Assembly: GCA_964474085.1 (NCBI GenBank) | Contig: CAYYRJ010000013.1 | Coordinates: 797-64,796, forward strand | Length of the DNA stretch: 64,000 nucleotides | Direction: 5' to 3' | Origin: an uncultured Planctomycetales bacterium | GTDB lineage: Bacteria > Omnitrophota > Gorgyraeia > Zapsychrales > JANLHA01 | In this document: positions 5,657 through 64,000 of the stretch, piece after piece | How the letters are laid out: every line of letters begins with the position of its first letter | Numbering within the stretch: position 1 is the first letter of the stretch | Notes under the pieces: generated by a model | Seen by the model: only the letters and a program-made list of their open reading frames with translations | Databases searched by the model: none | Told to the model about the DNA's origin: nothing | Program-made: the position numbers and the translations under genes

Positions 5657-6471
5657 CAAAAAAGCGTGTTATTAGTTCAGCATTGATGATCGGCTTGACT
5701 GCGGCAGCTGTGATTAATTCATGGGTATTTTTGTTCATGGTTTTAGGTTTAACCATCGGAGGGCTTTACGAATTTTTTCATATGATCAAGCGAAAAGGAA
5801 TCCCGATTTATAGCTATTTTGGGATTTTTATCGGTTGTTTGATTCCGTTGACGATTTATAGTCGTTTTGAATTGACGCGCAATTGGGAATTTCTGTTTAT
5901 TGTTTTGGCGTTTTTAACGATTTTGCTTTTTCAATTTGCGCGCAACGACAATAGCAACGCGATTGTCGGGATTTCAACGACGATGTTCGGTGTATTTTAT
6001 GTCTCGTGGTTGTTTTCGTTTTTAATACGTGTTCGTTTTTTATTGCCTGGGTTTGAAGGAGTAAAACTTGCTTGTTTTATTGTTATTCTGACAAAGGTTG
6101 GGGATATTGGGGCTTTGTTAGTCGGAAGTTTGTGGGGCAAGCATCCGCTTTTTCCGCGTGTCAGTCCCAACAAGTCGATTGAAGGGTGTATTGGCAGTTT
6201 TACTTTTAGCATTGCGGCTGCTGTTTTATGTTATTCCTTATTGCCAGAAGGTTTGTTGCCGCTTTGGAAAGTTGCTCTTATGGGTGCTTTTTTTGGAGCG
6301 ATGGGACAATTGGGTGATATTTGTGAGTCTCTGATCAAGCGCGATTGCAACATGAAAGATTCGGGAAAGTTTTTGCCGGGCTTAGGCGGGGTTTTGGATA
6401 TTATTGATAGTTTGCTTTTTTCGGTGCCGCTATTTTATTTGTATATGAGTTCTATTCTTCGAATGATGTAA
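5653..6471 (+). CDS. cdsA: phosphatidate cytidylyltransferase
   Basis: Polytopic membrane protein. C-terminal CTP-transferase signature (SLIKRDCNMKDSGKFLPGLGGVLDIIDS). Confidence 0.9.
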   Translation: MTKKRVISSALMIGLTAAAVINSWVFLFMVLGLTIGGLYEFFHMIKRKGIPIYSYFGIFIGCLIPLTIYSRFELTRNWEFLFIVLAFLTILLFQFARNDNSNAIVGISTTMFGVFYVSWLFSFLIRVRFLLPGFEGVKLACFIVILTKVGDIGALLVGSLWGKHPLFPRVSPNKSIEGCIGSFTFSIAAAVLCYSLLPEGLLPLWKVALMGAFFGAMGQLGDICESLIKRDCNMKDSGKFLPGLGGVLDIIDSLLFSVPLFYLYMSSILRMM

Positions 6472-11339: not shown

Positions 11340-11792
11340 ATGTTGACCGATATTCAAGCTCAAGTTGAAAGCATTGTTCCTCTAATTGTGGTAGCGGCTG
11401 GTTTGGATCTTGTTGAGCTTTCTGTCGCACAATCGGGGCTGGCTTATAAGATTGAAGTTCTTTGTGACCGGCCACAAGGAGGGATTACATTAGAAGAGTG
11501 CGTTAAACTCAATAAAGTGATTGTTGAAATTTTTGATTTACAGCCGTGGGCAGAGGATTATGAATTGGTCGTTGCCTCTCCGGGGCTGGATCGGCCCTTA
11601 AAGAATCAAAAAGACTTTGCCCGGATGTTAGGTAAGCGGGTCAAAGTTCTTTTGACCGAAAAAGTCGATGGCAAGGGAGAATATTCGGGTTTGGTCAAAG
11701 AGGTTTTTGAAGATGCTGTTTTAATCGCCGTAAGAAAAAAAGAAATTAAATTGCCGTACGACAAAATTTTGAAGGCGGGATTAATGATATAG
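11340..11792 (+). CDS. rimP: ribosome maturation factor RimP
   Basis: 150 aa. Directly upstream of nusA-infB. Confidence 0.8.
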   Translation: MLTDIQAQVESIVPLIVVAAGLDLVELSVAQSGLAYKIEVLCDRPQGGITLEECVKLNKVIVEIFDLQPWAEDYELVVASPGLDRPLKNQKDFARMLGKRVKVLLTEKVDGKGEYSGLVKEVFEDAVLIAVRKKEIKLPYDKILKAGLMI

Positions 11793-11963: not shown

Positions 11964-13172
11964 ATGGATAATAATGAATTGATGACAATTTTGGAACAAT
12001 TAGAGCGCGACAAGGGCATTGACAAAGAGATTTTGATCAGCGCTGTCGAAGCGGCTGTCGCATCCGCTGCGCGAAAAATTTTAAGCGTCGGTGAAGAAGA
12101 GGAAGTCAAAGTTGTTTTAAACCGCAAGACCGGAAAACTCAAGGCCTACGCTGGCGAGCAAGAAATTCGTTCCAGTGAGTTTGGCCGTATCGCTGCGCAA
12201 ACAGCTAAGCAGGTTGTTATTCAAAAAATCCGCGAAGCCGAAAAAGATGTTGTTTACACCGAATATCAGGCTCGCATCGGACAGATCATCAGCGGCAGCG
12301 TTTATCGTTTCGAAAAAGGCAATATCATTATCGATCTTGGCAAAACAGAAGGTTGCCTTTTGCGCAGTGAGCAGTCACCGAAAGAGGAATTTAAACAGGG
12401 CGATCGTGTGCGGGCCTATGTTTTAAGCGCTAGCCGTGAAACCAAGGGGCCGCAGATCATTCTTTCTCGGGCGCATCCGAATTTTGTCAAACGTTTGTTT
12501 GAACTCGAAGTTCCCGAAATTTATGAAGGGATTGTCGAAATCAAGTCGATTGCACGCGCAGCCGGGGAGAGGACAAAGATTGCGGTCTATTCGAAGGATG
12601 ATAAGGTCGATTGCGTTGGAGCCTGTGTCGGGATGCGCGGGTCGCGTGTCAAAAATATTGTTACCGAACTGCAGGGTGAGCGCATTGACATTGTCCGTTA
12701 TTCGGAAGATGTCAAGGAGTATATTCAGGCGGCTTTATCGCCGGCCGAAATTTCGCAGATCCAAGTCAAGTCCGACGATAAAAAAGCGAATCTTATCGTT
12801 GCTGACGATCAATTGTCATTAGCCATCGGTAAACGCGGGCAAAATGTCCGATTGGCCAGCGAACTTGTCGGATGGGATTTAAATATTTTTACGGCTGAAC
12901 AATGGAAAAAACATTTGGATGAGCTCTTAGGCGGAGCGGGGCCAGCTAAGGGGATTCTTGATCAAAAAGTTGAGGATGTAGAAGAGCTCGGCTTAGAAGA
13001 TCTGCCCGGTGTGGGAGAAAAACTTTTGGAGTCTCTCAAAGAAGCGGGTTTTGATTCGCTCGAAAAAATCGCTGACGCAAGCCTTGAAGCATTGACCGCT
13101 GTTAAGGGTTTAGGTGAAGCGAAGGCGCAAAAAATTATCGGCAAGGCCAAGGGCTTGTTAAAAAAAGACTAA
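11964..13172 (+). CDS. nusA: transcription termination/antitermination factor NusA
   Basis: N-terminal domain, S1 and KH domains. C-terminal acidic helix-hairpin-helix repeat. Confidence 0.95.
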   Translation: MDNNELMTILEQLERDKGIDKEILISAVEAAVASAARKILSVGEEEEVKVVLNRKTGKLKAYAGEQEIRSSEFGRIAAQTAKQVVIQKIREAEKDVVYTEYQARIGQIISGSVYRFEKGNIIIDLGKTEGCLLRSEQSPKEEFKQGDRVRAYVLSASRETKGPQIILSRAHPNFVKRLFELEVPEIYEGIVEIKSIARAAGERTKIAVYSKDDKVDCVGACVGMRGSRVKNIVTELQGERIDIVRYSEDVKEYIQAALSPAEISQIQVKSDDKKANLIVADDQLSLAIGKRGQNVRLASELVGWDLNIFTAEQWKKHLDELLGGAGPAKGILDQKVEDVEELGLEDLPGVGEKLLESLKEAGFDSLEKIADASLEALTAVKGLGEAKAQKIIGKAKGLLKKD

Positions 13173-13227: not shown

Positions 13228-15663
13228 GTGAATATGTTAGTTTCCGAATTAGCCAAAGAGTTTAATACCACCGCTGCCGTTGTTTTAGGGAAACTTAAAA
13301 CACTTCGTCTTAAGGCTGTAGACGAAAAGCAGGATTTGAGCAAGGCGGTTGTGACTGTTTTGCGCAGTGAACTGGTTAAAGATTTAAAAACCGCAACGGC
13401 GGTTCGTGTTGCCGCGAAAGCTGCAAAAATCAGTTCCAAGCAATCGGCGCTTAAAGTTGTCGAAAAAGAAAAAGAAGAAGAGTCGCCGAAGCCTAAAAAA
13501 GAAACAACCAAAAAAAGTGCTTCCAAAAAAGCAGCGGCTGTGCAAGAGCCTAAAGAAGAGATTGCCAAAGAAAAACCGCAAGAAGTTCCGGTTGTCGAGC
13601 CTGTTGTTAAGGAAGTTGTTTCGCCAAAAGTGGAAGTTAAGGAAGAAAAGCCTCCTGTTAAAATCGAAGTTGCGGTTGCTCCTGTTGTTGTCCCGCCGCA
13701 AAAAGTTGTCGCTGCCGCACCGATTATTAAACCTACCGCGGAAGAAGAAGCCAAAGGGTTTGTTCCATTGCGGCCATTGGTTAAGAAGAAGCGGCGTGTT
13801 CCAGGACGTGCTGATTTTCCTCGCAGCGGCAGTGAAAACATTTCGACCGACTCTTTGCCGTCGACAGCACCAACAGCGCCCACTGTCCCTGCGGCACCCA
13901 AAGAATTAAAAGAACTTGAAGTCCAGTTGCCGATTTCGGTTAAAGATTTTGCTGTGCGTATTCAGGAAAAGACGAGTGTTGTTTTAAAGAAACTCATGGA
14001 AATGGGTGTTTTGGCCAACATCAACCAAAATTTAAGTGAAGAAGTTGTCCGCACCTTGGCGGAAGCTTTAGGATTTTCGATTACAAAAATTAAAACCAAG
14101 GAAGAAAAACTGATTGAAATTCATAAAGCCGAAGAAGAGGATCCCAAGCTGTTATCCGCCCGAGGCCCTGTCGTCACATTTATGGGGCACGTCGATCACG
14201 GAAAAACTTCATTGCTAGACCGTATTCGCAAGAGCCGTGTCGCTGACAAAGAGCATGGCGGGATTACACAGCACATTGGCGCCTATTCGGTGCAGGTCCC
14301 TAAGGGGCGCATTACATTTTTAGACACGCCCGGTCACGAAGCGTTTACCGCGATGCGCGCACGCGGGGCGCATATTACAGATATTGTCGTCATTGTTGTC
14401 GCTGCCGATGAAGGGATTATGCCACAGACAGAAGAAGCCATTGACCATGCCCGTGCTGCCGGTGTTCCGATTGTCATTGCTTTAAATAAAATTGATAAAC
14501 GCAATGCGGATATTGACCGGGTTAAAAAGCAATTGATGGAACACGATTTGAGCCCTGAAGATTGGGGCGGGAAAACAATTGTTGTTGGGGTTTCGGCAGT
14601 CACAGGCGAAGGGATAGATAAACTTTTGGAAATGATGTTCTTGGAGTCTGAAATGCTTGAGCTTCGCGCTAATCGTCAGAAAAAGGCTTCCGGAATCGTC
14701 GTCGAGGCGCATATGAGCCGGGGCAAGGGTTCTTTGGCCACGTTAATCGTTCAAAGCGGAACGTTGCGTCCCAACGATATGATTGTTGTCGGGCCATATT
14801 ACGGCCGCGTTAAGGCGATGTTTGATGATTACGAAAAGCCCATCGGCGAAGCGGGCCCGTCGATGCCGGTTGAAATTTTAGGGTTGCCCGGCGTTCCTGA
14901 TGCGGGTGAAATGTTTTATGTTGTTGAAAATGAGGACCAGGCACGCGAAATTACCTCGGTGCGCGTTGAGCAGTTAAAGCATGAACGACTTCATGCGACG
15001 AGCAAAATTACGCTTGAAGATCTTTATACTCAAATTCAGCAGGGCAAAGTTAAGGAACTTAATGTTATTTTGAAAGCAGACGTGCAAGGTTCGCTGGAGG
15101 CGATTAAGGATTCGCTTAATAAAATTTCGACGGCGGAAGTCAAGGTCAGCTTTATTCATACGGGTGTCGGCGACGTTAATGCCGCAGACGTTATTTTGGC
15201 TTTTGCATCGAACGCGATCATTATTGCTTTCCAAGTTGACATTGGCGTTAAGGCCGCGCAGGAATTGGAAAAACAACCCGTCGATGTGCGCAAATACCGT
15301 ATCATTTATGACGCTGTCAATGACGTAAAGAAAGCGATGGAAGGGCTCTTGGAGCCTAAGAAGCGCCGCAAGTTTGTGGCTCGCATTGAAGTGCGTCAAG
15401 TCTTTAAACTCAGCAAAGGATACACCGTTGCCGGCTGTTATGTTTTAAAGGGCAAGATCAACCGTAAAGCCACCGTCGATGTGATGCGAAATGGCGAGGT
15501 TGTTCATACGGGAGCTGTTTCGGGGATCAAACGCTTTAAAGATGATGTTAAAGAAGTTAATGAAGGTTATGAGTGCGGGATTCTTTTGGAGAAGTTTGAG
15601 AAGTTTGAACCCGGGGATATTTTGGAAGCGTTTGAAACCGAATCGATAGCCAGAACGTTATAA
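13228..15663 (+). CDS. infB: translation initiation factor IF-2
   Basis: 811 aa. Lys/Pro/Glu-rich N-terminus. G domain with GHVDHGKT, DTPGHEAF and NKID motifs. Confidence 0.95.
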   Translation: MNMLVSELAKEFNTTAAVVLGKLKTLRLKAVDEKQDLSKAVVTVLRSELVKDLKTATAVRVAAKAAKISSKQSALKVVEKEKEEESPKPKKETTKKSASKKAAAVQEPKEEIAKEKPQEVPVVEPVVKEVVSPKVEVKEEKPPVKIEVAVAPVVVPPQKVVAAAPIIKPTAEEEAKGFVPLRPLVKKKRRVPGRADFPRSGSENISTDSLPSTAPTAPTVPAAPKELKELEVQLPISVKDFAVRIQEKTSVVLKKLMEMGVLANINQNLSEEVVRTLAEALGFSITKIKTKEEKLIEIHKAEEEDPKLLSARGPVVTFMGHVDHGKTSLLDRIRKSRVADKEHGGITQHIGAYSVQVPKGRITFLDTPGHEAFTAMRARGAHITDIVVIVVAADEGIMPQTEEAIDHARAAGVPIVIALNKIDKRNADIDRVKKQLMEHDLSPEDWGGKTIVVGVSAVTGEGIDKLLEMMFLESEMLELRANRQKKASGIVVEAHMSRGKGSLATLIVQSGTLRPNDMIVVGPYYGRVKAMFDDYEKPIGEAGPSMPVEILGLPGVPDAGEMFYVVENEDQAREITSVRVEQLKHERLHATSKITLEDLYTQIQQGKVKELNVILKADVQGSLEAIKDSLNKISTAEVKVSFIHTGVGDVNAADVILAFASNAIIIAFQVDIGVKAAQELEKQPVDVRKYRIIYDAVNDVKKAMEGLLEPKKRRKFVARIEVRQVFKLSKGYTVAGCYVLKGKINRKATVDVMRNGEVVHTGAVSGIKRFKDDVKEVNEGYECGILLEKFEKFEPGDILEAFETESIARTL

Positions 15664-40623: not shown

Positions 40624-40923
40624 TGCCATGTGCAAGTTTTATTTACCGACTTGGGAAAGTCCTTTTAGGCTCAATTGTTTTGCGCCTCTATGGCGCCATT
40701 CGCCTTAAAAGGGCTTCCCGAGTCGGGGCTTCATTTGCCATCGCGTTATTTAGCTAGATTTGAAAAATTTTTAAAGAAAATTTGCCTTTCTCGGGGAGTT
40801 TCTTTATACTTATGTGTATCTTATCTGTATTTATCTTTTGTAGCATCTCCATTTGACAGTATTTATTTGTTTTATCTAAAGAGGAAAAACTCTGTGCAGT
40901 CTCTCTTTCATCGAGATAGTCTA

Positions 40924-43704
40924 ATGTTTTTCAGAAAAATAATCAGCAGTTTTATTGTGTTGACGTTTTTGACGTCGCTTGTCGTCGTTCCGGCAGGGGG
41001 CCAGGTTTTTCTGGATGTCGCAACGTCCATTAACGCAAATGCTGGGTATCAGCCCCCCGTACTTTTAGGACTTAAAATCCATCCCGAAAATCCGCTTTTG
41101 TTTGATTTTATCGTCGACCAAGGGCAATCGAAACTTTCGACAGACGAACTAAAAGAGGAAACAACTAAGCTCGTCAAATATTTTCTCGCGGCGTTAACCA
41201 TTCCGGACAAAGAAGTTTGGGTCAACCTTTCGCCGACCGAAAAAGATCGAATTATTCCTGATGTTTTGGGCCAGACGACGATGGGCAAAACGATGCTTGA
41301 GCAGGATTATGTTTTAAAGCAATTGGCCGCCTCGCTCACCAATCCCGAAACGGATTTGGGGAAGAAATATTGGGAGCAGGTTAATGGGGCAAGGACGCTA
41401 GACGTTAGACGTTGGACGTTGGAAAAAACACCCAGCGTCCAGCCTCCAGCGACCAGCGATTTTAACAAGGTTTGGATCATGCCGGAAAAGGCCGAAGTTT
41501 TGGAAAGTAACGGGATTGTTTTGGTTGGCGAAAAGCGGTTGAAGGTGATGCTGGATGAGGAATATCAAGCCGTAGGGGCGTATTGCAATACGCCCCTACA
41601 GAAAAATGTTATTTCCTCCCAAATTTTCCGCACCACCATCCTTCCAACCATCGAAAAGGCCGTCAATGAAGGCAAAGAATTTGCCGACGTGCGTCAGATT
41701 TACAATTCCGTTATCCTCGCCGCATGGTACAAAAAGGCTTTAAAAGAAAGTTTGCTGGGCAAGATTTATACTGACAAAGGCAAAGTTGCCGGTGTTGAAA
41801 CCGACGACAAAACGATGAAACAACGCATTTATGAGCAATATTTAGCCGCCTTTAAAAAAGGCGCGTACAACCTGATAAAAGAAGAAGCCGACGAAAATGG
41901 TGATCTAATTCCGAGGAAATATTTTAGTGGGGGAATTGAGATTGCTGCATTTGGCGATGGGGCCAGGTCTTCATTGACAGAAAGAACCGTTTCATTACGA
42001 CAAGTAGAAGGGAGGATTGAAGGGATTAGTTCCAGCGTCGCTGTGACGGTCCAATTAGCCGCTACTAAAGATGAGTCTGGCGTGGTTTCCAGTGCCGCAA
42101 CGCAAGGAGAAGATGTTATTTTCGCCGCCGCCTCAAACTCTCTTCGACAAGATCCCAGCAGAAAAGTCAGTTATGGAAATACAAAATACCATTTGAGCAC
42201 AGTTATTAAAATTTTAGAAGAACTTGTTAATTATTGGGATGGTCAAGAGGATAATCCTGATAAATTTGCTACTCATGGCGTGCACGGCAAAATAATCACG
42301 AGTGTTCAACTGCTCTCTGCTCCCGGCGTTACTTTTTCGCTTGATGATATCCGTTTTAAATCCATATTTTTGGATAATTTAGTTAAACAGTTGAAAGTTC
42401 AAAATATCAAACGTCTTGACCCGATTAGGCTCTTTCAAGTTTGGGTTTCTCAAGATTTCAAATTAAATTTTGCTATTTCTAATTCTCAGAGAGTTAAAAA
42501 TATTACCATCGAGGATGCTAGGGCGATTTTTTTTAGAGACCTTTTACCGCTTATTAGGGATGAACTTCAAAAGTATTCGGACAATGCTGACCCCCAGCAA
42601 GCCTATTGGAGGACTGTTTCGGAAAGGACATCGGTTTTACTCAGTGGCCCTGTACAAAGAATCCAAGCAGTTTTGGATGCAAGCTATGATAAATTTCATC
42701 AAACAGGACACTTTCATGATTTAAACGCAATTTTATCGGATCCCTCCAGGGGCAGGTTGCGAGAAAGCTTTTCGAATATCCAAAATGTTATCGCCGAGGT
42801 TTTGGGTGACACTCAGAGTTTTGCATCCCAAAAAGCAGTGTTAGTGGGACAGCAAACCTATCCTCAGACAGAGAAAGCGGCCTATGTCAACGAAAGTTTT
42901 ATTCACGCAACACTTGTGAGTGATATTTTTTCAAGTTGGAAACAGAATGTGCGATTTCGAGAAAAACTAGCTTCAGAAACTTCACGAGTAGAAAAGCCAC
43001 TTGTTCAGGTCAAAGGTGTCCATCTGATGCCTGATTTAAGTGTTGCTTTTGAATTACAGGAAGTCAGGTGGAGACAGAACTCGAATGTTTTGAAAACCGT
43101 TAAAGAAACAGCAGCCCAACTAGCAGAAGATAACGGCCAAGCGCCTCGATATTTTCCAGACACGCTTGCCGCAACTGTTGCATATTTGTTTGGAAATGAT
43201 ATCAGTCGCAGCCAGCTTTTAGAACTTAATAGTCGTTTTAGTGAAATTAATATTCAATTGCAAAAAGATCCGATTACGTTTTTTATTGACGAAATGCAGT
43301 TGCAAAGCGGAACAAAAAAAGGATTTGTGGTTACTCGCAGTAAAACGCTCAAATTTTCCGCTTCGAGCGGGGTTGATGACAAGGTGAATGTTGCCTCAGC
43401 GCCCGTCGGAGGGCTTGACCGCCAAGTCGGCGGTATCGACTTTGACCCGACGAGCATGAATTTGCAAATTAAGCGCGACGGACGTGGTGTGCCGCTGCCA
43501 TTGCCGCAACAGAATTTGGAACAGATCAATATTCAGGGCTTGTTTCCCGTTATCATCAACATTACACCAATCAATGCGCAGACTTTGCCGATCTTTTTAG
43601 GGTTTACCCGCCCAAATTCTGGCGGTGGGCAGTCCTTTGAATCTTTTGGCGGGCAAGTGCCCAAAGAACCGGCCAAGGAAATTGAACAAGTCGCGGGGAC
43701 CTGA
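40924..43704 (+). CDS. large secreted protein A (926 aa). Its N-terminal ~400 aa domain is paralogous to protein B. Function unknown.
   Basis: Signal peptide at MFFRKIISSFIVLTFLTSLVVVPAGG. The N-terminal domain aligns with ORF 46345-50502 (WVNLSP...DRIIP; KVWI(M/V)P(E/D)KA). Contains an in-frame REP and an in-frame heptad-repeat hairpin. The ORF-track start 40675 is probably upstream junk. Confidence 0.7.
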   Translation: MFFRKIISSFIVLTFLTSLVVVPAGGQVFLDVATSINANAGYQPPVLLGLKIHPENPLLFDFIVDQGQSKLSTDELKEETTKLVKYFLAALTIPDKEVWVNLSPTEKDRIIPDVLGQTTMGKTMLEQDYVLKQLAASLTNPETDLGKKYWEQVNGARTLDVRRWTLEKTPSVQPPATSDFNKVWIMPEKAEVLESNGIVLVGEKRLKVMLDEEYQAVGAYCNTPLQKNVISSQIFRTTILPTIEKAVNEGKEFADVRQIYNSVILAAWYKKALKESLLGKIYTDKGKVAGVETDDKTMKQRIYEQYLAAFKKGAYNLIKEEADENGDLIPRKYFSGGIEIAAFGDGARSSLTERTVSLRQVEGRIEGISSSVAVTVQLAATKDESGVVSSAATQGEDVIFAAASNSLRQDPSRKVSYGNTKYHLSTVIKILEELVNYWDGQEDNPDKFATHGVHGKIITSVQLLSAPGVTFSLDDIRFKSIFLDNLVKQLKVQNIKRLDPIRLFQVWVSQDFKLNFAISNSQRVKNITIEDARAIFFRDLLPLIRDELQKYSDNADPQQAYWRTVSERTSVLLSGPVQRIQAVLDASYDKFHQTGHFHDLNAILSDPSRGRLRESFSNIQNVIAEVLGDTQSFASQKAVLVGQQTYPQTEKAAYVNESFIHATLVSDIFSSWKQNVRFREKLASETSRVEKPLVQVKGVHLMPDLSVAFELQEVRWRQNSNVLKTVKETAAQLAEDNGQAPRYFPDTLAATVAYLFGNDISRSQLLELNSRFSEINIQLQKDPITFFIDEMQLQSGTKKGFVVTRSKTLKFSASSGVDDKVNVASAPVGGLDRQVGGIDFDPTSMNLQIKRDGRGVPLPLPQQNLEQINIQGLFPVIINITPINAQTLPIFLGFTRPNSGGGQSFESFGGQVPKEPAKEIEQVAGT
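41402..41469. repeat. heptad minisatellite arranged as an inverted pair (long hairpin), in-frame inside the protein A gene
   Basis: aaggacg ctagacg ttagacg ttggacg ttgg, then aaaaaacaccc, then cagcgtc cagcctc cagcgac cagcg. Encodes GARTLDVRRWTLEKTPSVQPPATS. Confidence 0.6.
41572..41599. repeat. REP element embedded in-frame in the protein A gene
   Basis: gtaggggcgtattgcaatacgcccctac, encoding VGAYCNTPL. Confidence 0.8.
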
Positions 43705-56568: not shown

Positions 56569-58272
56569 ATGCCCGCACTTCTTACCCAAAAATTTTGGCA
56601 AGTTCGCAACCCTGATCCCTTTCTCCAAGTTTATTTAAGCAATGCTTTAAAAGTCCATCCACTGATCGCCCAGGTGCTGGCCAATCGTGGGATTACCAGC
56701 GCCGATGAGGGAAAAGAGTTTTTGTCCGCTGACTTAAACACTTTGCATGACCCTTTTCTTCTTAAAGATATGGACCGGGCTGTTTTGCGGATCCGGCAAG
56801 CGAAAGAGAACAAGGAAAAAGTTTTGGTTTTTGGCGATTATGACGTCGATGGGGTCACGTCGTCTGCCCTTTTGTATAAAATTTTTACCCGCTTAGGAAT
56901 TGCGGTGAGCAATCACATTCCGCATCGTATGTCCGACGGTTATGGCTTGAATGATTCGATCGGCCAAATTGCCAAAGAGGCGGGGATCAAACTTTTAATT
57001 GCCGTCGATTGCGGGATTACCGCAATTCGTGAAGTCGCACTTTTAAATGCGCTAGGCATTGACGTTATTATTCTGGACCATCACGAGCCGTCGGTGGAAG
57101 GTCTGCCTGCGGCATTTGCGATTGTGGATCCCAAACGCCATGATTGCAGTTATCCGTTTAAACATTTAGCTTCCGTCGGGCTGGTTGCAAAACTTTCGCA
57201 GGCACTTTTTGGAAAAGTCCCGGAAGAATACTTGGATTTGATTGCGCTGGGCACGATTGCGGATGTGGTGCCACTGCGTGGGGAAAACCGGATTTTTGTC
57301 AAAAACGGAATGCCGAAGTTAGGCGAAACCAAAAATTTTGGTCTTGCCGCTTTAATCGACGGCGCTAAGATCCGCGGCAAAAAGTTTAGGCCTCATTATG
57401 TTGGTTTTATTTTAGGCCCGCGCATTAATGCGACGGGGCGCATGGGCTCGGCTCACAAATCTCTTGAGCTTCTTTTGTCGTGCGATGGGCCGACGGCTTT
57501 TGGTTTGGCGCAAGAGCTTGAAGAATTTAACAGCGAACGTCAGCGACTTCAAAAGCAAGTTGTCGAAGAAGCGATGCAGATGATCGAACAGGAAATCAAT
57601 TTTAAAGAACATAAAGTGATTGTCTTATGCCAACAAGGTTGGCACAAAGGCGTTTTGGGCATTGTTGCTTCGCGTGTGGCCGAAACGTATTATCGGCCGA
57701 CGATTATTATTTCGCTGGAAAATGGCGTCGGGACAGCGTCCGCGCGGTCGATTGAAGGCTTTCACTTAAATGAAGCGCTTGAGCATTGCTCGGAGATTTT
57801 AGTGACCTTTGGCGGACACAAACTTGCCGCTGGCCTAACGATTAAAGAGGAACATGTCGAGAATTTTAGACGTAAGATCAACGATTTTGCCAAAGATATT
57901 TTGGAAATCCGCAATATGATTCCCACCATCTCCATTGACGCAGAAGTTTCGCTCTCTTCGCTGAGCTTGGAAGTCGCCCAGCTGATTGAAAGTTTAGAGC
58001 CCTACGGCGAGGGCAATGCGACCCCGGTGTTTTGTTCTCGCCAGCTGGTGGTCAAAAGTCCGCCGAGCTTGATGGGCAAGGACACGATTAAATTTTGGGT
58101 AAGCGACGGGCAAAGCAGCATTTCGGCGGTGGGTTTTGGCATGGCCAAGTACGCGGATTTAGTCCGTCCCGGCGCCCAAGTCGACCTTGCCTATGAATTG
58201 ACCATTGATGATTGGAACAAAAGCCCCGTGCCACAGCTAAAGCTCAAGGACATTCGCGAGAGCGGGGGGTAG
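56569..58272 (+). CDS. recJ: single-stranded-DNA-specific exonuclease RecJ
   Basis: DHH motifs (VFGDYDVDGVTS, DHH at ILDHHEP). DHHA1 GGH motif. 567 aa. Confidence 0.9.
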   Translation: MPALLTQKFWQVRNPDPFLQVYLSNALKVHPLIAQVLANRGITSADEGKEFLSADLNTLHDPFLLKDMDRAVLRIRQAKENKEKVLVFGDYDVDGVTSSALLYKIFTRLGIAVSNHIPHRMSDGYGLNDSIGQIAKEAGIKLLIAVDCGITAIREVALLNALGIDVIILDHHEPSVEGLPAAFAIVDPKRHDCSYPFKHLASVGLVAKLSQALFGKVPEEYLDLIALGTIADVVPLRGENRIFVKNGMPKLGETKNFGLAALIDGAKIRGKKFRPHYVGFILGPRINATGRMGSAHKSLELLLSCDGPTAFGLAQELEEFNSERQRLQKQVVEEAMQMIEQEINFKEHKVIVLCQQGWHKGVLGIVASRVAETYYRPTIIISLENGVGTASARSIEGFHLNEALEHCSEILVTFGGHKLAAGLTIKEEHVENFRRKINDFAKDILEIRNMIPTISIDAEVSLSSLSLEVAQLIESLEPYGEGNATPVFCSRQLVVKSPPSLMGKDTIKFWVSDGQSSISAVGFGMAKYADLVRPGAQVDLAYELTIDDWNKSPVPQLKLKDIRESGG

Positions 58273-58287
58273 GATCTTTAAAATTCT

Positions 58288-58313
58288 GTAGGGGCGTATT
58301 GCCATACGCCCTT
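58288..58313. repeat. REP element (GTAG-headed palindrome, ttgcca-centre variant)
   Basis: gtaggggcgtattgccatacgccctt. 8-bp stem gggcgtat/atacgccc. Confidence 0.75.
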
Positions 58314-58324
58314 CTTCAAAAGCT

Positions 58325-59365
58325 ATGCCTACCAAATCAAAACAATCCATTATTAAATCTGTAGACATTAGCAGTTATTCGTCGCTGGTTAAGCTGGTGC
58401 GGGAAGAATTTGCGAGTTTGGAATTTTTTGTCAAAAGCCGAACGGTACAGGGATATTGGCAGGTCGGAAAGTTCGTTCACGACCATCTTTTGCACCACCA
58501 AGAACGCGCAGAATACGGCAATCAACTCTTTGAGCGGCTGGGAAAAGATTCGGGAAGAGATTCAAGTACTTTGCAAAAAATGTTGAGGTTTTATCGGACG
58601 TATCCAATTCTGGCAACGTTGCCAGAATTGACGTGGAGTCATTTTTTGGCTTTAATGGCTGTTAAAGATAAAGGGGAAAGAATTCGGCTTGAAAAAGAAA
58701 TTATTCAAAAAGAGTGGGATGTCCGTAAGCTCCAGAAATATTTGAATATTAAACGCAAATTGGTTCCTGCCGGTGCGAATTCGTCTGTCCCGCAATTAAA
58801 GTTTACCCGTGGCAGGCCGCATATTTACCAGATTATAAAAGCGGTCCCGCCGCTTTTGGCCCAGCATCCCTTGGTTTTGGATTTGGGCTTTCGTTTACAA
58901 GATACAATTCCCGCCAATGAGCTGGGTTTAAAAGAGCAGGACTTTGTGGAACTTATTATTAAGGGAAATAAAATCGTCGGTGTAGGAACGACCCAAGTCG
59001 AAAAGGACGAACTATTCACTTACGCGGCGAGCGTCCAAAAAGTTGTCGACGGGGATACCTTGATTGCGACGCTGGATTTTAAAAGCACTTTTAGCATTAG
59101 TCAAAAAATGCGTCTGCGCGGGATTGATTGCCCGGAGCTCGACACTGAGGAAGGCCAGAAGGCCAAACGTTTTGTCGAAGATCGCCTGAAGAATTGTGAT
59201 TTTATTATTGTGAAAACTTACAAAGACCGCACCGACCGTTTTGACCGGTATTTGGCGGACATTTTTTATTGGCCCGGCGAAGCTGATGAAAACAAAGTTG
59301 CCCGTCAGGGGAAATATCTTAATCAGGAGCTTTTGGACGAACGTCTGGCGGTGGTGTACGTGTGA
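58325..59365 (+). CDS. fusion protein: YhcG/DUF1016-type N-terminal domain plus C-terminal staphylococcal-nuclease (SNase/thermonuclease)-like domain
   Basis: The N-terminus resembles the DUF1016 N-domain (YWQVGKFV..., TLPELTWSHFLALMAV). The C-terminus resembles SNase (DGDTLIATLD...MRLRGIDCPE...ERLAVVY). Flanked by REPs. Confidence 0.6.
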   Translation: MPTKSKQSIIKSVDISSYSSLVKLVREEFASLEFFVKSRTVQGYWQVGKFVHDHLLHHQERAEYGNQLFERLGKDSGRDSSTLQKMLRFYRTYPILATLPELTWSHFLALMAVKDKGERIRLEKEIIQKEWDVRKLQKYLNIKRKLVPAGANSSVPQLKFTRGRPHIYQIIKAVPPLLAQHPLVLDLGFRLQDTIPANELGLKEQDFVELIIKGNKIVGVGTTQVEKDELFTYAASVQKVVDGDTLIATLDFKSTFSISQKMRLRGIDCPELDTEEGQKAKRFVEDRLKNCDFIIVKTYKDRTDRFDRYLADIFYWPGEADENKVARQGKYLNQELLDERLAVVYV

Positions 59366-59370
59366 TTTTT

Positions 59371-59395
59371 GGGACGTATTGCCATACGCCCTTAC
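59371..59395. repeat. REP element variant
   Basis: gggacgtattgccatacgcccttac followed by the conserved tail acaaatg. Confidence 0.7.
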
Positions 59396-59544
59396 AAATG
59401 TATTTCGTTGACCATTTCAAACCTTTGGAAAGAATTTTCTTCCCAAAATCTGTTTGCCCCCATCGTTGCCCAGTGATAATATTTACCAGCCCCTTTAAGA
59501 ATTCCCCAATTAAAAATTCTACCCCTCTGTTTTCAGGAGGAGTT

Positions 59545-60063
59545 ATGTCAAAGATTATCATCCCGTTAGAGCGTATCGAAAAGAAGATCTATTTGATTCG
59601 AGGACACAAAGTCATGTTCGATTTTGATTTGGCGGAACTTTACGAAGTGCCAACCAAGCGTCTTAAAGAGCAGGTTAAACGTAATATCGGTAGATTTCCG
59701 GATGATTTTATGTTTCAATTGACCCTTGAGGAAGTCAAAATCTTGAGGCCGCAAATTGCGACCTCAAGTTGGGGCGGTTCACGTTATTTGCCATATGTTT
59801 TTACTGAACAAGGGACGGCCATGTTATCGAGCGTATTAAGCAGTCAACGGGCTATCGCTGTTAACATTGCTATAATCCGTGCGTTCGTTAAACTGCGGGA
59901 AATGATGGCGACCCATCATGATCTTGCAAAAAAGATCAATGACCTTGAAAGACAGTACAAAGATCACGATCAAAAGATTGTTATGATTTACGAAGCGATA
60001 CGTAATCTCATGACTCCGGCGCAGGAGCCAGCTAAGCGTAAAATTGGATTTCATGCGGATTAA
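59545..60063 (+). CDS. ORF6N-domain DNA-binding protein (mobile-element associated), copy 1
   Basis: IRGHKVMFDFDLAELYEVPTKRLKEQVKRNIGRFPDDFMFQLT matches the ORF6N pattern. GGAGG RBS. Confidence 0.7.
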   Translation: MSKIIIPLERIEKKIYLIRGHKVMFDFDLAELYEVPTKRLKEQVKRNIGRFPDDFMFQLTLEEVKILRPQIATSSWGGSRYLPYVFTEQGTAMLSSVLSSQRAIAVNIAIIRAFVKLREMMATHHDLAKKINDLERQYKDHDQKIVMIYEAIRNLMTPAQEPAKRKIGFHAD

Positions 60064-60067
60064 AAAA

Positions 60068-60094
60068 CAGGGGCGTAGGAGAATACGCCCCTAG
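60068..60094. repeat. REP-like palindrome (ggagaa-loop variant)
   Basis: caggggcgtaggagaatacgcccctag. 9-bp stem. Identical copy at 63218. Confidence 0.7.
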
Positions 60095-60180
60095 ATAACA
60101 CGAAAGAAATTTTCTTATAGAATATTATATTAATTAATCCGTACGGCTATCCCCACCGTCTTTAATCGAAGGGAGATGCC

Positions 60181-60717
60181 ATGCGTGATCTAAAACGAAA
60201 ATCCATTCGGCTAAAAACATTTAACTACTCTCAGGTTGGCGCTTATTACATTACTCTCTGTTCTTTGAATCGCACATGCTTATTTGGTGAAATATGTGAT
60301 GATCAGGTAACATTAAGCCCTTTTGGAAAAATTGTTTTCTATGAATGGTTAAATACACCGATTCTACGACCCAATATTCAATTGGATGAATTTATTGTCA
60401 TGCCGAATCATTCCCATGGGATTATTATAATTAATGAAACCTGTAGGGGCGTATTGCAATACGCCCCTACAAATATGTTTCGTTCACCATTGCAAACCGT
60501 TGGGGCGATTGTACGCGGCTTTAAATCTGCGGTAACAAATAAAATCAACATATTAAGAAAATCGCCAGGTCAACCTGTTTGGCAACGAAATTATTTTGAA
60601 CACATTATTCGCGATGATTCTGATATGGAACGCATTCGGGAATATATTTACAATAATCCAAAGAATTGGGAAACAGATGAAAATAATCAGGAGAGATCAA
60701 TAGGGTCTGCGGATTGA
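60181..60717 (+). CDS. REP-associated tyrosine transposase (RAYT; IS200/IS605-like HuH Y1 transposase), copy 1
   Basis: 178 aa. HuH motif MPNHSHGII. Catalytic Tyr block WQRNYFEHIIRD. Cognate GTAG-headed REP palindromes nearby and inside the gene. Confidence 0.8.
   Translation: MRDLKRKSIRLKTFNYSQVGAYYITLCSLNRTCLFGEICDDQVTLSPFGKIVFYEWLNTPILRPNIQLDEFIVMPNHSHGIIIINETCRGVLQYAPTNMFRSPLQTVGAIVRGFKSAVTNKINILRKSPGQPVWQRNYFEHIIRDDSDMERIREYIYNNPKNWETDENNQERSIGSAD
60443..60470. repeat. REP element (perfect palindrome) embedded in-frame in the RAYT gene
   Basis: gtaggggcgtattgcaatacgcccctac, encoding RGVLQYAPT. Confidence 0.8.
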
Positions 60718-60848
60718 TGGACATCGTAATTTGAATTAATCAAAGTCCTGGTAGGGATTCTCTAAACACATACCGTAACCCGAATTAAAGGTAAAGAAAT
60801 TTGTTGCTGAAAGATAAGGTTTCGGTATGTGGCTGGGGTTTCAAATTA

Positions 60849-60912
60849 CGTCATCCTGAGCGAAGCGAAGGATCTCGGTGGAGATTCTTCGGCCTTCGGC
60901 CTCAGAATGACG
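60849..60912. repeat. MITE-like palindromic element, related family (GTCATCCTGAGCGAAGCGAAGG)
   Basis: cgtcatcctgagc ... gcctcagaatgacg. Internal ggccttcggcc hairpin. Confidence 0.55.
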
Positions 60913-60996
60913 ACCATAAGAAAAAATTTACAAACACTTCATTGAATAACAGTTGAGTAGAATCAATTGATTTTTAACATAGGAGGTGTTGTTTAT

Positions 60997-61872
60997 ATGA
61001 AAAAGTTAATTTTTATTTTTATATTTACCTTTATCTGTTTGCCGGTTTTTGCCGATACGATTACGCTGCCAATTATTGTTGCTCCCCAAGTCGAACAAGG
61101 AGCCATCGATGTCCTTGAGGAAATTGGGCAGGATGCAATTGAAATTCCGTTAAACCCACTGCGCAAGCTGGATGGTTTTAGCCGCGAAGATATTTTTAAT
61201 AGTCGACGTGAAAATGTCAATAAGATATCGGGTTTTGCTCCCCCTAATTATGCACCCAGCATGGACGCTTTCGGTCAAATACAGGATGGTAAACCCTGGT
61301 GGGGCCTTTTGGGCTTAAGTTATTTTGGCCCGGGAATGCAGAGCATTGAAGGCCACTCCAGAGAGTCCCAGTTTATTGACAACCCCTACATCCTCGCCGG
61401 AGTTTGTGAAAAATTTGCCAATATTGTTACGAATAAATCCCTTGCTCCCCAAGAAATTTACGCTAAACCGCTTAAATTAATATGGGGACGTGATAGAAGC
61501 TGGGGACAAATCACTTATAATGTGAGCCAAGCGTATCAATCCGCTGTTTTGTACAGGTACATAGATCCGCAAGAAAATTATTTAGCTGTTATCAATGCGA
61601 GAGATTTTGGGTTTAATTTTTTTGCGATCGACGCTAGTCGGTCTCGAAACATTAGAGCGACTGTAAATAAAATTTTGCCGATTATTCAGTTTATTCACAC
61701 CGGAGGCAGTTGTGGTTATCCCGGTGGGTGTAATAACCGTAGCCCAACTCAGCCAGAATTGAATTTCAAATGGAATATGTTGCCGGCAAGGATTTATCTT
61801 AAGCTTTGGAGAAGCCAGCCGCAGGATTTTTCTCAAAAGGCAGATATGGATTTTGTTATAGATTTAAAATGA
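60997..61872 (+). CDS. secreted hypothetical protein
   Basis: Signal peptide MKKLIFIFIFTFICLPVFA. AGGAGG RBS. No recognisable domain. Confidence 0.5.
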   Translation: MKKLIFIFIFTFICLPVFADTITLPIIVAPQVEQGAIDVLEEIGQDAIEIPLNPLRKLDGFSREDIFNSRRENVNKISGFAPPNYAPSMDAFGQIQDGKPWWGLLGLSYFGPGMQSIEGHSRESQFIDNPYILAGVCEKFANIVTNKSLAPQEIYAKPLKLIWGRDRSWGQITYNVSQAYQSAVLYRYIDPQENYLAVINARDFGFNFFAIDASRSRNIRATVNKILPIIQFIHTGGSCGYPGGCNNRSPTQPELNFKWNMLPARIYLKLWRSQPQDFSQKADMDFVIDLK

Positions 61873-61914
61873 GACTAGGGAAAGTGTTTTAGACTCAGAT
61901 CTGCGGGTGCCTAA

Positions 61915-62007
61915 GTTGACCTTGCCTATAAATTGACCATTGACGATTGGAATAAAAGCCCCGTGCCACAACTAAAGCTCAAAGATATTCGGGAGAGCGG
62001 GGGGTAG
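61915..62007 (+). repeat. diverged direct repeat of the recJ 3' end (duplicate of 58180-58272)
   Basis: 93 nt with about 9 mismatches. It translates in frame to VDLAYKLTIDDWNKSPVPQLKLKDIRESGG*, which differs from the RecJ C-terminus at one residue. Confidence 0.8.
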
Positions 62008-62067
62008 CAGGGTGGGGCAAGGTTGCCGGCGAGGGCATTAAGTTCAATAAAAATAGGAGTGAAAAAT

Positions 62068-62493
62068 ATGGTTGAGAATAAAAAACCATTGATTGGCATT
62101 GGGTTTCTTGTTGCATTTGCGTTTGTGTGGGGAATAATTTCGTACTTTTCAATGGCAATGTTTGTAGGGAGCATGAGTGGGAGATTAGCCCCTGTTGACT
62201 ACGTGCGCCCGTGGACTAGTTATTTTTTGTTCAGTAAAGATTTTCTAATAAATATTTTGATTTGGGTAATAATCGTTTTGCCGTTTATTTCTGGGATCGG
62301 TCTTTTAATCGGAAAGAATTGGGCGCGGATATTGTATATTGCCTGTTGTTCTGCTCAAATGTTTTGGGTTTTATTTAATATTGTCAAGAATTTTTCTGTC
62401 GGTGCTATTCCGTTTATTTTACTTTACGTGTGTATTTTTTCTTTTCCGATTTGGTATTTGAATCGTTCAAAAGTCAAAGAACAATTTAAGTAG
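62068..62493 (+). CDS. small integral membrane protein, hypothetical
   Basis: Four predicted transmembrane segments. Its stop codon lies in the GTAG head of a REP. Confidence 0.45.
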   Translation: MVENKKPLIGIGFLVAFAFVWGIISYFSMAMFVGSMSGRLAPVDYVRPWTSYFLFSKDFLINILIWVIIVLPFISGIGLLIGKNWARILYIACCSAQMFWVLFNIVKNFSVGAIPFILLYVCIFSFPIWYLNRSKVKEQFK

Positions 62494-62517
62494 GGGCGTA
62501 TTGAAATACGCCCTTAC
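62490..62517. repeat. REP element (ttgaaa-centre variant)
   Basis: gtaggggcgtattgaaatacgcccttac. The TAG of the GTAG head is the stop codon of the upstream membrane-protein gene. Confidence 0.7.
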
Positions 62518-62703
62518 TATTAAATCCCCCAACCCCCTTTGTTAAAGGGGGAGCCGCAGGCGGGGGATTTGAATGAAAAGTAGGTGTTTCGATATTTTTG
62601 TGCAAAAATCTATTTGCCCCCATCATTGTCGAGTGATAATATTTACCAGCCCCGTAAGAATTCCCCAATTAAAAATCCTACCCCTCTGCCTTGAGGAGGA
62701 GTT

Positions 62704-63213
62704 ATGTCAAAGATTGTTATTGAACAAGAATGGATTGAACGCAAAATTTATTTTATTCGGGGTAAGAAAGTCATGGTTGATCGTGATTTAGCCGAATTAT
62801 ACGAGGTCCCAACGAAATCATTAAATCTTGCAGTTAGGCGTAATGCAGATCGTTTTCCACAAGATTTCATGTTTCAATTGACAGCACAGGAAGCAGAAAT
62901 CTTGAGGTTTCAATCTGAAACCTCAAGTTGGGGTGGGCAACGATACTTGCCGTATGTTTTTACTCAATAGGGTGTTGCTATGCTTTCGGGTGTCTTAAGG
63001 AGCAAGCGTGCGGTTAATGTCAATATAGAAATTATGCGTGCTTTTGTCCGCTTACGACAAATTTTATCTGTACATAAGGAGTTGGATCGCAAACTTCAAG
63101 ATTTAGAAAAAAAATACGACAATCAGTTTAAAGCTGTCTTTGATGCTATTCGTCAGTTGATGACTCCGGCGCAGGAGCCAGCTAAGCGCAAAATTGGATT
63201 TCATGCGGATTAA
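62704..63213 (+). pseudogene. ORF6N-domain protein, copy 2, interrupted by in-frame TAG at 62971-62973
   Basis: Same frame as copy 1 on both sides of the stop (62704-62970 and 62980-63213). Copy 1 has caaggg where copy 2 has tagggt. Confidence 0.7.
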
Positions 63214-63217
63214 AAAA

Positions 63218-63244
63218 CAGGGGCGTAGGAGAATACGCCCCTAG
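63218..63244. repeat. REP-like palindrome (ggagaa-loop variant)
   Basis: Identical to 60068-60094. Confidence 0.7.
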
Positions 63245-63330
63245 ATAACACGAAAGAAATTTTCTTATAGAATATTATATTAATTAATCCGTACGGCTAT
63301 CCCCACCGTCTTTAATCGAAGGGAGATGCC

Positions 63331-63867
63331 ATGCGTGATCTAAAACGAAAATCCATTCGGCTAAAAACATTTAACTACTCTCAGGTTGGCGCTTATTACA
63401 TTACTCTCTGTTCTTTGAATCGCACATGCTTATTTGGTGAAATATGTGATGATCAGGTAACATTAAGCCCTTTTGGAAAAATTGTTTTCTATGAATGGTT
63501 AAATACACCGATTCTACGACCCAATATTCAATTGGATGAATTTATTGTCATGCCGAATCATTTTCATGGGATTATCATAATTAATGAAACTGGTAGGGGC
63601 GTATTGCAATACGCCCCTACCAAAGCATTCCGTTCACCGTCTCAAACGATTGGATCGATTGTGCGTGGGTTTAAAGGTGCGGTAACAAATAAAATTAATA
63701 CGTTGAGAAAATCGCCAGGTCAACCTATTTGGCAACGAAATTATTTTGAACACATTATTCGTGATGATTTTGACATGGAACGCATTCGGGAATATATTTG
63801 CAATAATCCAAAGAATTGGGAAACAGATGAAAATAATCAGGAGAGATCAATAGGGTCTGCGGATTGA
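63331..63867 (+). CDS. REP-associated tyrosine transposase (RAYT), copy 2
   Basis: 178 aa, about 93% identical to copy 1. HuH motif MPNHFHGII. WQRNYFEHIIRD block. Internal REP. Confidence 0.8.
   Translation: MRDLKRKSIRLKTFNYSQVGAYYITLCSLNRTCLFGEICDDQVTLSPFGKIVFYEWLNTPILRPNIQLDEFIVMPNHFHGIIIINETGRGVLQYAPTKAFRSPSQTIGSIVRGFKGAVTNKINTLRKSPGQPIWQRNYFEHIIRDDFDMERIREYICNNPKNWETDENNQERSIGSAD
63593..63620. repeat. REP element embedded in-frame in RAYT copy 2
   Basis: gtaggggcgtattgcaatacgcccctac. Confidence 0.8.
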
Positions 63868-63941
63868 TGGACATCGTAATTTGAATTAATCAAAGTCCTG
63901 GTAGGGATTCTTTAAACACATACCGTAACCCGAATTAACTC

Positions 63942-63968
63942 GTAGGGACGTATGGCCTACGCCCTTAC
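63942..63968. repeat. REP element variant
   Basis: gtagggacgtatggcctacgcccttac followed by acaaatg. Confidence 0.6.
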
Positions 63969-64000
63969 AAATGTTTTTTTACAAACAAAAAAGCCTGTGC

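Follow-up and report, generated by a model that had tools for sequence, protein, structure and literature searches.

Surveys by Touchon and colleagues in 2009 and by Oliveira and colleagues in 2017 reportedly describe integration hotspots between core genes in bacterial pangenomes. Many core-gene hotspots are free of integrases and are put down to homologous recombination within the core genes on either side. At Rhs, contact-dependent inhibition (CDI) and type VI secretion system (T6SS) loci, displacement of gene 3' ends is said to have been described by Jackson and colleagues in 2009, as cited by Kirchberger and colleagues in 2017. In this process a conserved upstream gene anchors the insertion of a new 3' sequence together with its cassette, the old 3' end and the downstream genes survive as orphans, no integrase takes part, and repeated events give rise to arrays (PMC5361080). 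The model proposed for the orphan 3' ends and orphan immunity genes of T6SS/Rhs loci is homology-facilitated illegitimate recombination, HFIR (Kirchberger et al. 2017, PMC5361080), a process defined experimentally (PMC3240628; references in PMC5361080). Here we analyse the DNA that follows recJ in a 64,000-nt stretch from an Omnitrophota bacterium (the window), in which the last 102 nt of recJ (J) recur downstream as an orphaned copy (J'). The second copy is probably the scar of an HFIR-type recombination that joined two different haplotypes of the DNA behind recJ.

The locus resembles the Rhs/CDI/T6SS loci in that a conserved upstream gene appears to serve as the anchor, in that an old 3' end and the genes behind it seem to have survived as orphans, and in that there is no integrase; the arrays have a parallel in one relative, L004, which carries three recJ tips. 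It differs in that recJ is a housekeeping anchor, its C-terminus conserved rather than polymorphic, so that a displaced tip encodes the same peptide and confers no new function. The cargo also has no functional link to recJ, and the mechanism is read here from sequence only. The kind of scar is already known; it is found here in a hotspot flanked by core genes. Related loci and contigs used for comparison are designated by L-numbers, and the close cluster comprises those whose RecJ is at least 90% identical to that of the window.

A repeat search (family D4) shows that the recJ 3' end at 58171-58272 recurs at 61906-62007, with 92 of the 102 positions identical. In a MAFFT alignment the similarity starts at GG[C/T]GCC and stops directly after the TAG stop codon, and outside these limits both flanks are unrelated. 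The initial annotation had recognised a 93-nt repeat (58180-58272 and 61915-62007); these coordinates are correct for a core beyond which the similarity reaches 9 nt further in the 5' direction. Within the 93 in-frame nt, the frame is kept with a single E to K substitution, as had been noted, and the differences, put at about nine, number eight: seven synonymous and one non-synonymous (GAA>AAA, E>K). The additional 9 nt contribute two more: a synonymous change, and CAA>TAA, which creates a stop codon. In 20 shuffled windows the best ungapped match of the 102-mer elsewhere was at most 48/102, against the 92/102 observed, which excludes a chance origin of the repeat. The features on which the argument turns are as follows.

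56569-58272, plus strand: recJ (567 aa), with Pfam DHH, DHHA1 and RecJ_OB; conserved core gene and left flank of the hotspot.
57658-58272, plus strand: recombinant recJ 3' tract of L044/L002 type, a candidate homologous anchor, delimited by a maximum chi-square breakpoint.
58171-58272, plus strand: J, first copy of the repeat, forming the 3' end of the functional recJ with its stop codon; 3 mismatches to the L044 recJ end.
61873-61905, no strand: 33-nt spacer with a putative illegitimate junction at about 61903-61906; homology to L009 ends at the stop codon of gene S, and recJ homology runs from 61906.
61906-62007, plus strand: J', repeat copy 2, an orphaned recJ 3' end (repeat search, tblastn).

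The ten differences between J and J' are distributed as in a coding sequence. Third codon positions hold eight of them (binomial p = 0.0034), and the Nei-Gojobori estimates are dS ~0.50 and dN ~0.014 (dN/dS ~0.03; Fisher p = 5e-5); the longest identical run is 17 nt, and eight of the ten changes from J to J' are GC>AT. Because the divergence is dominated by synonymous changes, J' has almost certainly diverged within a functional recJ of a different lineage or haplotype, a view already put forward in the initial annotation and borne out by the seven-to-one count. At its present position J' lacks a start codon and is interrupted in frame by a TAA at 61912, and Rfam, promoter and terminator scans of 58000-64000 gave no signal at J', the sole terminator-like matches being repetitive extragenic palindromes (REPs). 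It is a non-functional relic with no detectable present function.

Only RecJ residues 535-567 are found at J' by tblastn, and directly upstream lies gene S, homologous to the S of L009 through its stop codon. J' is therefore not part of a second recJ, and the full-length paralogue that would have spoken against the initial annotation is not there. On the S side of J', GATTTAAAATGAGACTAGGGAAAGTGTTTTAGACTCAGATCTGCG stands directly before the GGTGCC with which J' begins; upstream of 61906, residual similarity to recJ amounts to scattered, chance-level matches within the 33-nt spacer. The other side of J' is marked by the k-mer GAGAGCGGGGGGTAGCAGGGTGGGGCAAGG, which passes from a J'-type recJ tail into gene M.

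These junctions are present in assemblies other than that of the window. Those joining S to J' and J' to M recur at 99.96% identity in L059, an independent ENA contig that spans window positions 60707-63244, and are therefore real. The J'-M junction is found in two further assemblies from other samples, L060 and L061, and an exact copy of J' in the independent contigs L059 and L061. L060, also independent, is 99.3% identical to 62000-64000 and runs on into the terminator hairpin and rpmB on the minus strand.

The gene order argS-recJ(+)-rpmB(-)-pepF(+) is kept across about 40 related Omnitrophota loci, and argS-recJ is found in all relatives; those recovered by a metagenome scan with RecJ, at no more than 81% identity, were used for synteny only. 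At most loci recJ is separated by no more than some 60-130 nt from a hairpin terminator, behind which rpmB ends. These empty sites lack everything between the recJ stop codon and the terminator, and occur for example in L002/L056 (RecJ 93% identical to that of the window), in L046/L047 and in the more distant L003 and L021. In the window the same interval reads recJ-D-O-R-S-J'-M-O'-R', where R and R' resemble REP-associated tyrosine transposases (RAYTs), and its remaining components are these.

Between recJ and REP palindrome 1: spacer of 15 nt.
58288-58311, no strand: REP palindrome 1, left border of the D cassette; a REP lies at the same position in L001 and L045/L058.
58325-59365, plus strand: D, DUF1016_N + SNase nuclease-like protein (Pfam; PADLOC candidate PDC-S02).
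59368-59395, no strand: REP palindrome 2, right border of the D cassette (L045 junction comparison).
59545-60063, plus strand: O, ORF6N-domain protein (Pfam E = 5e-35; PADLOC candidate PDC-S05, E = 1e-60).
60067-60094, no strand: REP' variant palindrome between O and R.
60181-60717, plus strand: R, RAYT-like Y1 transposase (weak Pfam Y1_Tnp match), with an in-frame REP at 60443-60470.
60997-61872, plus strand: S, signal-peptide protein with no Pfam family; homologue in L009.
62068-62493, plus strand: M, small membrane protein with no Pfam family, putatively the first gene of a displaced older haplotype.
62490-62517, no strand: REP palindrome after M.
62704-63213, plus strand: O', second ORF6N gene, with an in-frame TAG at 62968-62970.
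63217-63244, no strand: REP' variant palindrome between O' and R'.
63331-63867, plus strand: R', second RAYT-like gene, with an HFH motif and an internal REP at 63593-63620.
63942-63968, no strand: last REP, right border of the variable region (read from the sequence; repeat family D5).
63976-64000, no strand: first part of the bidirectional terminator of recJ and rpmB, from which the conserved gene order continues (L009, L060).

Measured against the empty sites, the inserted DNA of the window extends from 58273 to about 63975 (5.7 kb) and stops short of the rpmB terminator. The window closes with a 25-base string (63976-64000, TTTTACAAACAAAAAAGCCTGTGC) that is identical in L009, where it precedes the terminator hairpin and rpmB, and both L009 and L060 show that the window ends inside this terminator. 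As the variable DNA reaches about 63975, J' is internal to it and not its right edge, and M-O'-R' are accessory too; the two repeat copies, which had been taken as the limits of an island, do not delimit it. The more general proposal that foreign DNA entered at recJ is borne out, since this is accessory, variable DNA with empty sites in close relatives, so that the island is not common to all, and with a G+C content of 0.38-0.43 against 0.45-0.50 in the neighbouring core genes. In window positions 1-58272 all plausible genes are on the plus strand, and the first gene on the minus strand, rpmB, lies just past the window end.

Six arrangements, that of the window included, occur among the sampled members of the close cluster. 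What follows recJ is REP-D in L001, nothing in L002/L056, S alone, before the rpmB terminator, in L009, a 139-aa gene and then REP-D-REP and five small open reading frames (ORFs) in L044, and a REP, an O fragment and then R in L045/L058. In a second cluster, with RecJ at 83-85%, L048-L050 and L054 read recJ-Fic-D-rpmB, contigs L051-L053 show recJ-Fic before they end, and L004 reads recJ-Fic-R-S2-M2-M-D. D is thus found at this locus without S or J' in L001, L044, L004, L048-50 and L054, and is missing in L045/L058. The locus in L045 corresponds to the window minus D, its junction consisting exactly of the left flank of REP1 and the right flank of REP2, and the REPs therefore behave as cassette borders. 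The gene content first assigned to the bracketed segment stands (DUF1016_N + SNase, ORF6N, a weak Y1_Tnp/RAYT match and a signal-peptide protein without a Pfam family). However, since D, S and O-R each occur separately in relatives, with D turning over alone between REPs and S alone in L009, these 3.6 kb are not one element. The recJ-rpmB spacer is an integration hotspot between core genes with gene-by-gene turnover. It shares with other core-gene hotspots a fixed interval in which close relatives hold different accessory genes; unlike them, it is very small (0 to >6 kb), belongs to an uncultivated phylum and bears visible scars, where clean double crossovers leave none.

In the L004 locus, from a different RecJ cluster, recJ-tip fragments recur independently. 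Besides the full recJ end (11676-11704), L004 repeats its recJ tip three more times: at 12674-12700 (27 nt, the same as 11676-11702), at 13467-13486 (20 nt) and at 11764-11775 (12 nt). All finish at the stop codon and each lies at a cassette border, but their left ends differ (-29, -21 and -15). The 27-nt tip is the left end of a block that, by comparison with L054, is inserted in the spacer between Fic and D, and two of the tips adjoin a degenerate REP and an AT-rich unit. A degenerate copy of the recJ tip upstream of Fic is common to L004, L048-53 and L054; in the other related loci scanned no recJ-tip fragments were found.

What can be said of the origin of each copy in the window? A maximum chi-square analysis places a breakpoint at 57658 in the window recJ (0 of 2000 permutations as extreme). 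Left of it the window differs from L044 at 148 of 1089 positions (13.6%), right of it at 23 of 615 (3.7%), and a comparison with L002 places the breakpoint at the same position. On this signal the last 615 nt of recJ, J included, share recent ancestry with the L044/L002 lineage, and J itself has 3/102 mismatches to the recJ end of L044. Because 615 nt and not just 93 nt carry a foreign signature, homologous recombination accounts for the locus better than site-specific recombination, the initial annotation having left room for either. J', on the other hand, has mismatches per 102 nt of 10 to the window, 11 to L044, 13 to L001, 14 to L002, 17 to L045 and 19 to L009, and of 27-35 to the recJ ends of more distant relatives. 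Since J' is about equidistant from the close lineages, and the first 1089 nt of the window recJ are likewise ~14% from all sampled lineages, J' is as expected for the older tail of the window lineage itself. Three changes are private to J' (the TAA, E>K and one synonymous change), among them both that damage the protein, which would fit a short period of neutral decay after orphaning.

Taken together, these observations are probably best read as the outcome of an HFIR-type event. Two haplotypes from related Omnitrophota lineages, recJ-REP-D-REP-O-R-S and recJ-M-REP-O'-R'-REP, would have been joined in tandem, by homologous recombination on one side and on the other by a single illegitimate join between the S stop plus 33 nt and position -102 of recJ. 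In the variant that we tentatively favour, a possible rather than a probable one when taken alone, 3'-end displacement took place. Incoming DNA would have crossed over in recJ near 57658, bringing a new recJ tail and REP-D-REP-O-R-S; its far end, 33 nt past S, would have been joined to the resident recJ at a point 102 nt short of its stop codon, and the resident tail and M-O'-R' would have been pushed downstream. In the mirror variant, which is conceivable as well, the incoming fragment would be J'-M-O'-R', anchored in rpmB/pepF, its short, 90%-identical recJ end unable to recombine and joined illegitimately after S. We infer the order of events, which half is the newcomer, and the illegitimate nature of the 61905/61906 junction.

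Either variant would offer the simplest account of why the left ends vary and the right end is always the stop codon, why the fragments are short and why a recombinase is missing. The right end would be fixed because conserved sequence stops at the stop codon, and short tips are what HFIR predicts, because long homology gives clean, scarless replacement. Two features expected of such an event are found: a recombinant anchor tract in recJ that runs to the stop codon and adjoins inserted DNA, and an orphan 3' fragment that ends at TAG and is followed by different genes (M-O'-R'), as is likewise the case in L004.

Several points weigh against this reading. With only 10 differences between J and J', the selection argument is limited statistically, with p ~0.04 against a model in which one copy decays neutrally and the other is kept under selection. 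Window and L044 are 89% identical in D but 96% in the recJ tract; joint arrival of the two is therefore not required, and 57658 may mark an event of its own. In the sequence collections searched we found neither of the parental haplotypes, there being no genome with a full recJ of J'-type end followed by M and none with S and the 33 nt followed by something else, and we therefore infer both the illegitimate junction and any microhomology at it. Illegitimate junctions in HFIR typically involve 3-10 nt of microhomology between the parental sequences. An HFIR-type event would also presuppose that linear foreign DNA can enter these uncultivated bacteria, by competence, conjugation or transduction. 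Finally, L059 ends exactly at the O-R repeats, with their ~384-nt near-identical tract, and the assembly graph also allows a Campbell-type history or a separate, perhaps co-existing, 3.15-kb circle.

Insertion of circular DNA by ordinary homologous recombination, as in the Campbell model, seems to us unlikely, though it has points in its favour. O-R and O'-R' are direct repeats 3150-3160 nt apart, and L059 ends at these repeats, so the assembly graph holds a cycle. A ~384-nt tract (60010-60393 and 63160-63543) is identical but for 1 nt in modules that elsewhere are 75-93% alike; such a tract is expected around a crossover or a conversion, and the near-identity suggests recent gene conversion. 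Two routes can be envisaged. In the first, a circle [J-D-O-R-S] would cross over within the 102-nt recJ homology; 102 nt at 90% identity with perfect runs of at most 17 nt is, however, a poor substrate for RecA, and the foreign tract from 57658 is left unexplained. In the second, a donor of recJ-M-O-R-S type would have given rise, by illegitimate closure, to a 3.15-kb circle [S-33 nt-J'-M-O'-R'], which would cross over in the ~1.35-kb O-R module of a recJ-D-O-R genome. The recipient then needs legitimate recombination only, but an illegitimate closure of the circle at the same S|J' junction is still needed, the donor recJ-M-O-R-S was not observed and no circle junction was seen besides the chromosomal one.

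A wider interpretation, which we regard as distinctly doubtful, is that the recJ tail is a reusable docking sequence, with defence-type cassettes added successively behind recJ, each bringing a fresh tip and pushing older ones towards rpmB. If this were true, Omnitrophota would have behind recJ an ordered array of cassettes built without an integrase, possibly aided by REP/RAYT or by an unrecognised recombinase acting in trans, and the three tips of L004 and the single one of the window would represent two states of one process.

A site-specific integrative element carrying its own recJ 3' end as attP, with J and J' as attL and attR, was the initial model for the locus, and we now consider it improbable. 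A frame-preserving direct repeat of a gene 3' end is its classic signature, and as with islands, prophages and integrative and conjugative elements that insert in tRNA or protein gene 3' ends, supply a substitute 3' end and accrete in tandem, the frame is intact and the site has been used repeatedly in relatives, with several recJ-tip copies in L004. The similarity of L002 to the window recJ also changes at about 58176, near the left edge of J; a portable att segment of 100 nt was considered on this account and rejected, since the discontinuity reflects changes private to L002, and the J of the window matches L044. Unlike at such integration sites, there is no long identical core, the repeat lies off the island boundary, the tips have left ends that vary (-102, -29, -21, -15) where an attP would be fixed, and the bracketed genes turn over singly at REPs. 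Pfam searches of all eight island ORFs (58273-63975) revealed no integrase, excisionase or recombinase, and none is present among the called genes of ~15 related loci. The lack of an integrase inside the window's island had been noticed before; the suggestion that one might lie beyond the window end is not borne out, since both flanks are conserved core genes and none can therefore be hiding just outside. A scan of viral contigs with a degenerate recJ-tail pattern gave no match. A dif/Xer-type site at the recJ tail, acted upon by host recombinases, was also considered and rejected on inspection, the tail showing no likeness to dif consensus sequences.

In REP/RAYT systems (REPINs) palindromes with GTAG/CTAC feet occur in many copies next to genes resembling Y1 HUH transposases, and the locus is alike in its many 28-nt palindromes, next to which R and R' match such transposases weakly; it differs in that the REPs mark the cassette borders of a hotspot and also lie in frame inside the RAYT genes and another ORF. 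The palindrome has 8 copies in the window against 0.13 expected. The 28-nt sequence GTAGGGGCGTATTGCAATACGCCCCTAC lies in frame inside both RAYT-like genes, where it reads ..RGVLQYAPT.., and the RAYTs of L004 (13143-13162) and L045 (3754-3773) also carry a REP in frame. A transposase gene bearing its own target repeat in frame is unusual. A further REP, at 41572-41599, is in frame in a 1009-aa ORF (40675-43704), reading ..AVGAYCNTPLQ... To the right of REP2, 59392-59425 is homologous to the RAYT-internal segment 60467-60500 that follows the RAYT's own REP, and a RAYT fragment in L004 (12711-12794) ends at a REP; border REPs may, by this comparison, be remnants of disrupted RAYT genes. Between R and S, positions 60848-60915 can form a long hairpin with imperfect pairing, GTCATCCTGAGCGAAGCGAAGGATCTC ... 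CTCAGAATGACGAC.

Could R and R' themselves have cut near REP hairpins and moved REP-bounded segments, sometimes with a flanking piece of recJ? Almost all cassette borders carry a REP, the region has two RAYT genes, and recJ-tip fragments were seen only in genomes with these REPs (the window and L004), two of the L004 tips adjoining REP-variant units. But J' has no REP on either side, and no GTAG or REP-like motif is found at the left junction. The matches of R and R' to Pfam Y1_Tnp are weak (21.4 and 25.6 bits; cut-off 23), and the HUH motif, HFH in R', is HSH in R, which may on this ground be impaired. Enzymes of the IS200/IS605 type are not known to duplicate ~100 nt of target. The gain and loss of D is explained equally well by homologous recombination between REPs. 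We consider that mobilisation by RAYTs hardly accounts for J'.

An old in-situ tandem duplication of the recJ tail and the genes downstream, followed by divergence and gene replacement, would explain why two consecutive units share the layout of recJ tail, cargo gene, O and R, and eight of the ten changes from J to J' go in the usual direction of neutral decay. A non-coding copy so old is, however, calculated to carry ~25-30 random changes, not three unique ones; the concentration of differences at third positions and the ratio of dN to dS are likewise contrary to it, and O and O' share only ~75% identity in their 5' parts and the two units carry different cargo genes, so that we hold this history to be highly improbable. 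An assembly chimera of the loci of two co-occurring strains, as might be suspected of a metagenome-assembled contig with ~384-nt and ~80-nt repeats where another assembly breaks, is the least probable explanation of all, in that both J' junctions lie in unique sequence and are reproduced in L059 (J'-M in two more assemblies), that J and J' have no common stretch of more than 17 nt and would therefore not be merged in a k-mer graph, and that repeat resolution bears only on the order of the repeat-flanked blocks, not on the existence of S-J'-M.

As regards the cassette genes, Fic, an occupant of this locus in relatives (L004 11790-12431), matches the PADLOC candidate PDC-S04/SoFic, and to judge by such matches the recJ-rpmB spacer looks like a miniature hotspot of candidate defence genes. 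It resembles defence islands and the single-gene candidates PDC-S02, PDC-S04/SoFic and PDC-S05 in that D, Fic and ORF6N genes cluster in a variable locus, but these are candidates by match only, and S and M match nothing. The S of the window is without ~45 residues that follow the signal peptide in L009 (60997-61872 against L009 1156-2166); homologues of S (35-60% identity) are common in metagenomes, and no known domain is recognised in them. For M, a homologue search of databases gave none, nor was the parental recJ-M haplotype found that way; among the loci compared, a homologue 44% identical to M adjoins D in L004, and L044 retains at 6167-6227 a 34-nt remnant of the M 3' end with its REP, the rest of M being gone, which is another orphaned gene tail. 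O' is intact (169 aa) in L060, from another sample; given that L060 is 99.3% identical, the in-frame TAG in the window is therefore a recent nonsense mutation.

No new kind of biology is opened by this locus. For annotation it means that such a repeat should not be taken for an att site, nor the genes it brackets for a mobile element. For the organisms, J' would be a concrete, datable scar of the exchange of accessory, candidate anti-phage genes without an integrase in an uncultivated phylum with small genomes. Clean homologous replacements are traceless, and orphaned gene tips are among the few direct records of the route that recombination has taken; those described here would indicate that DNA passes between related Omnitrophota lineages that differ by roughly 10-15%.

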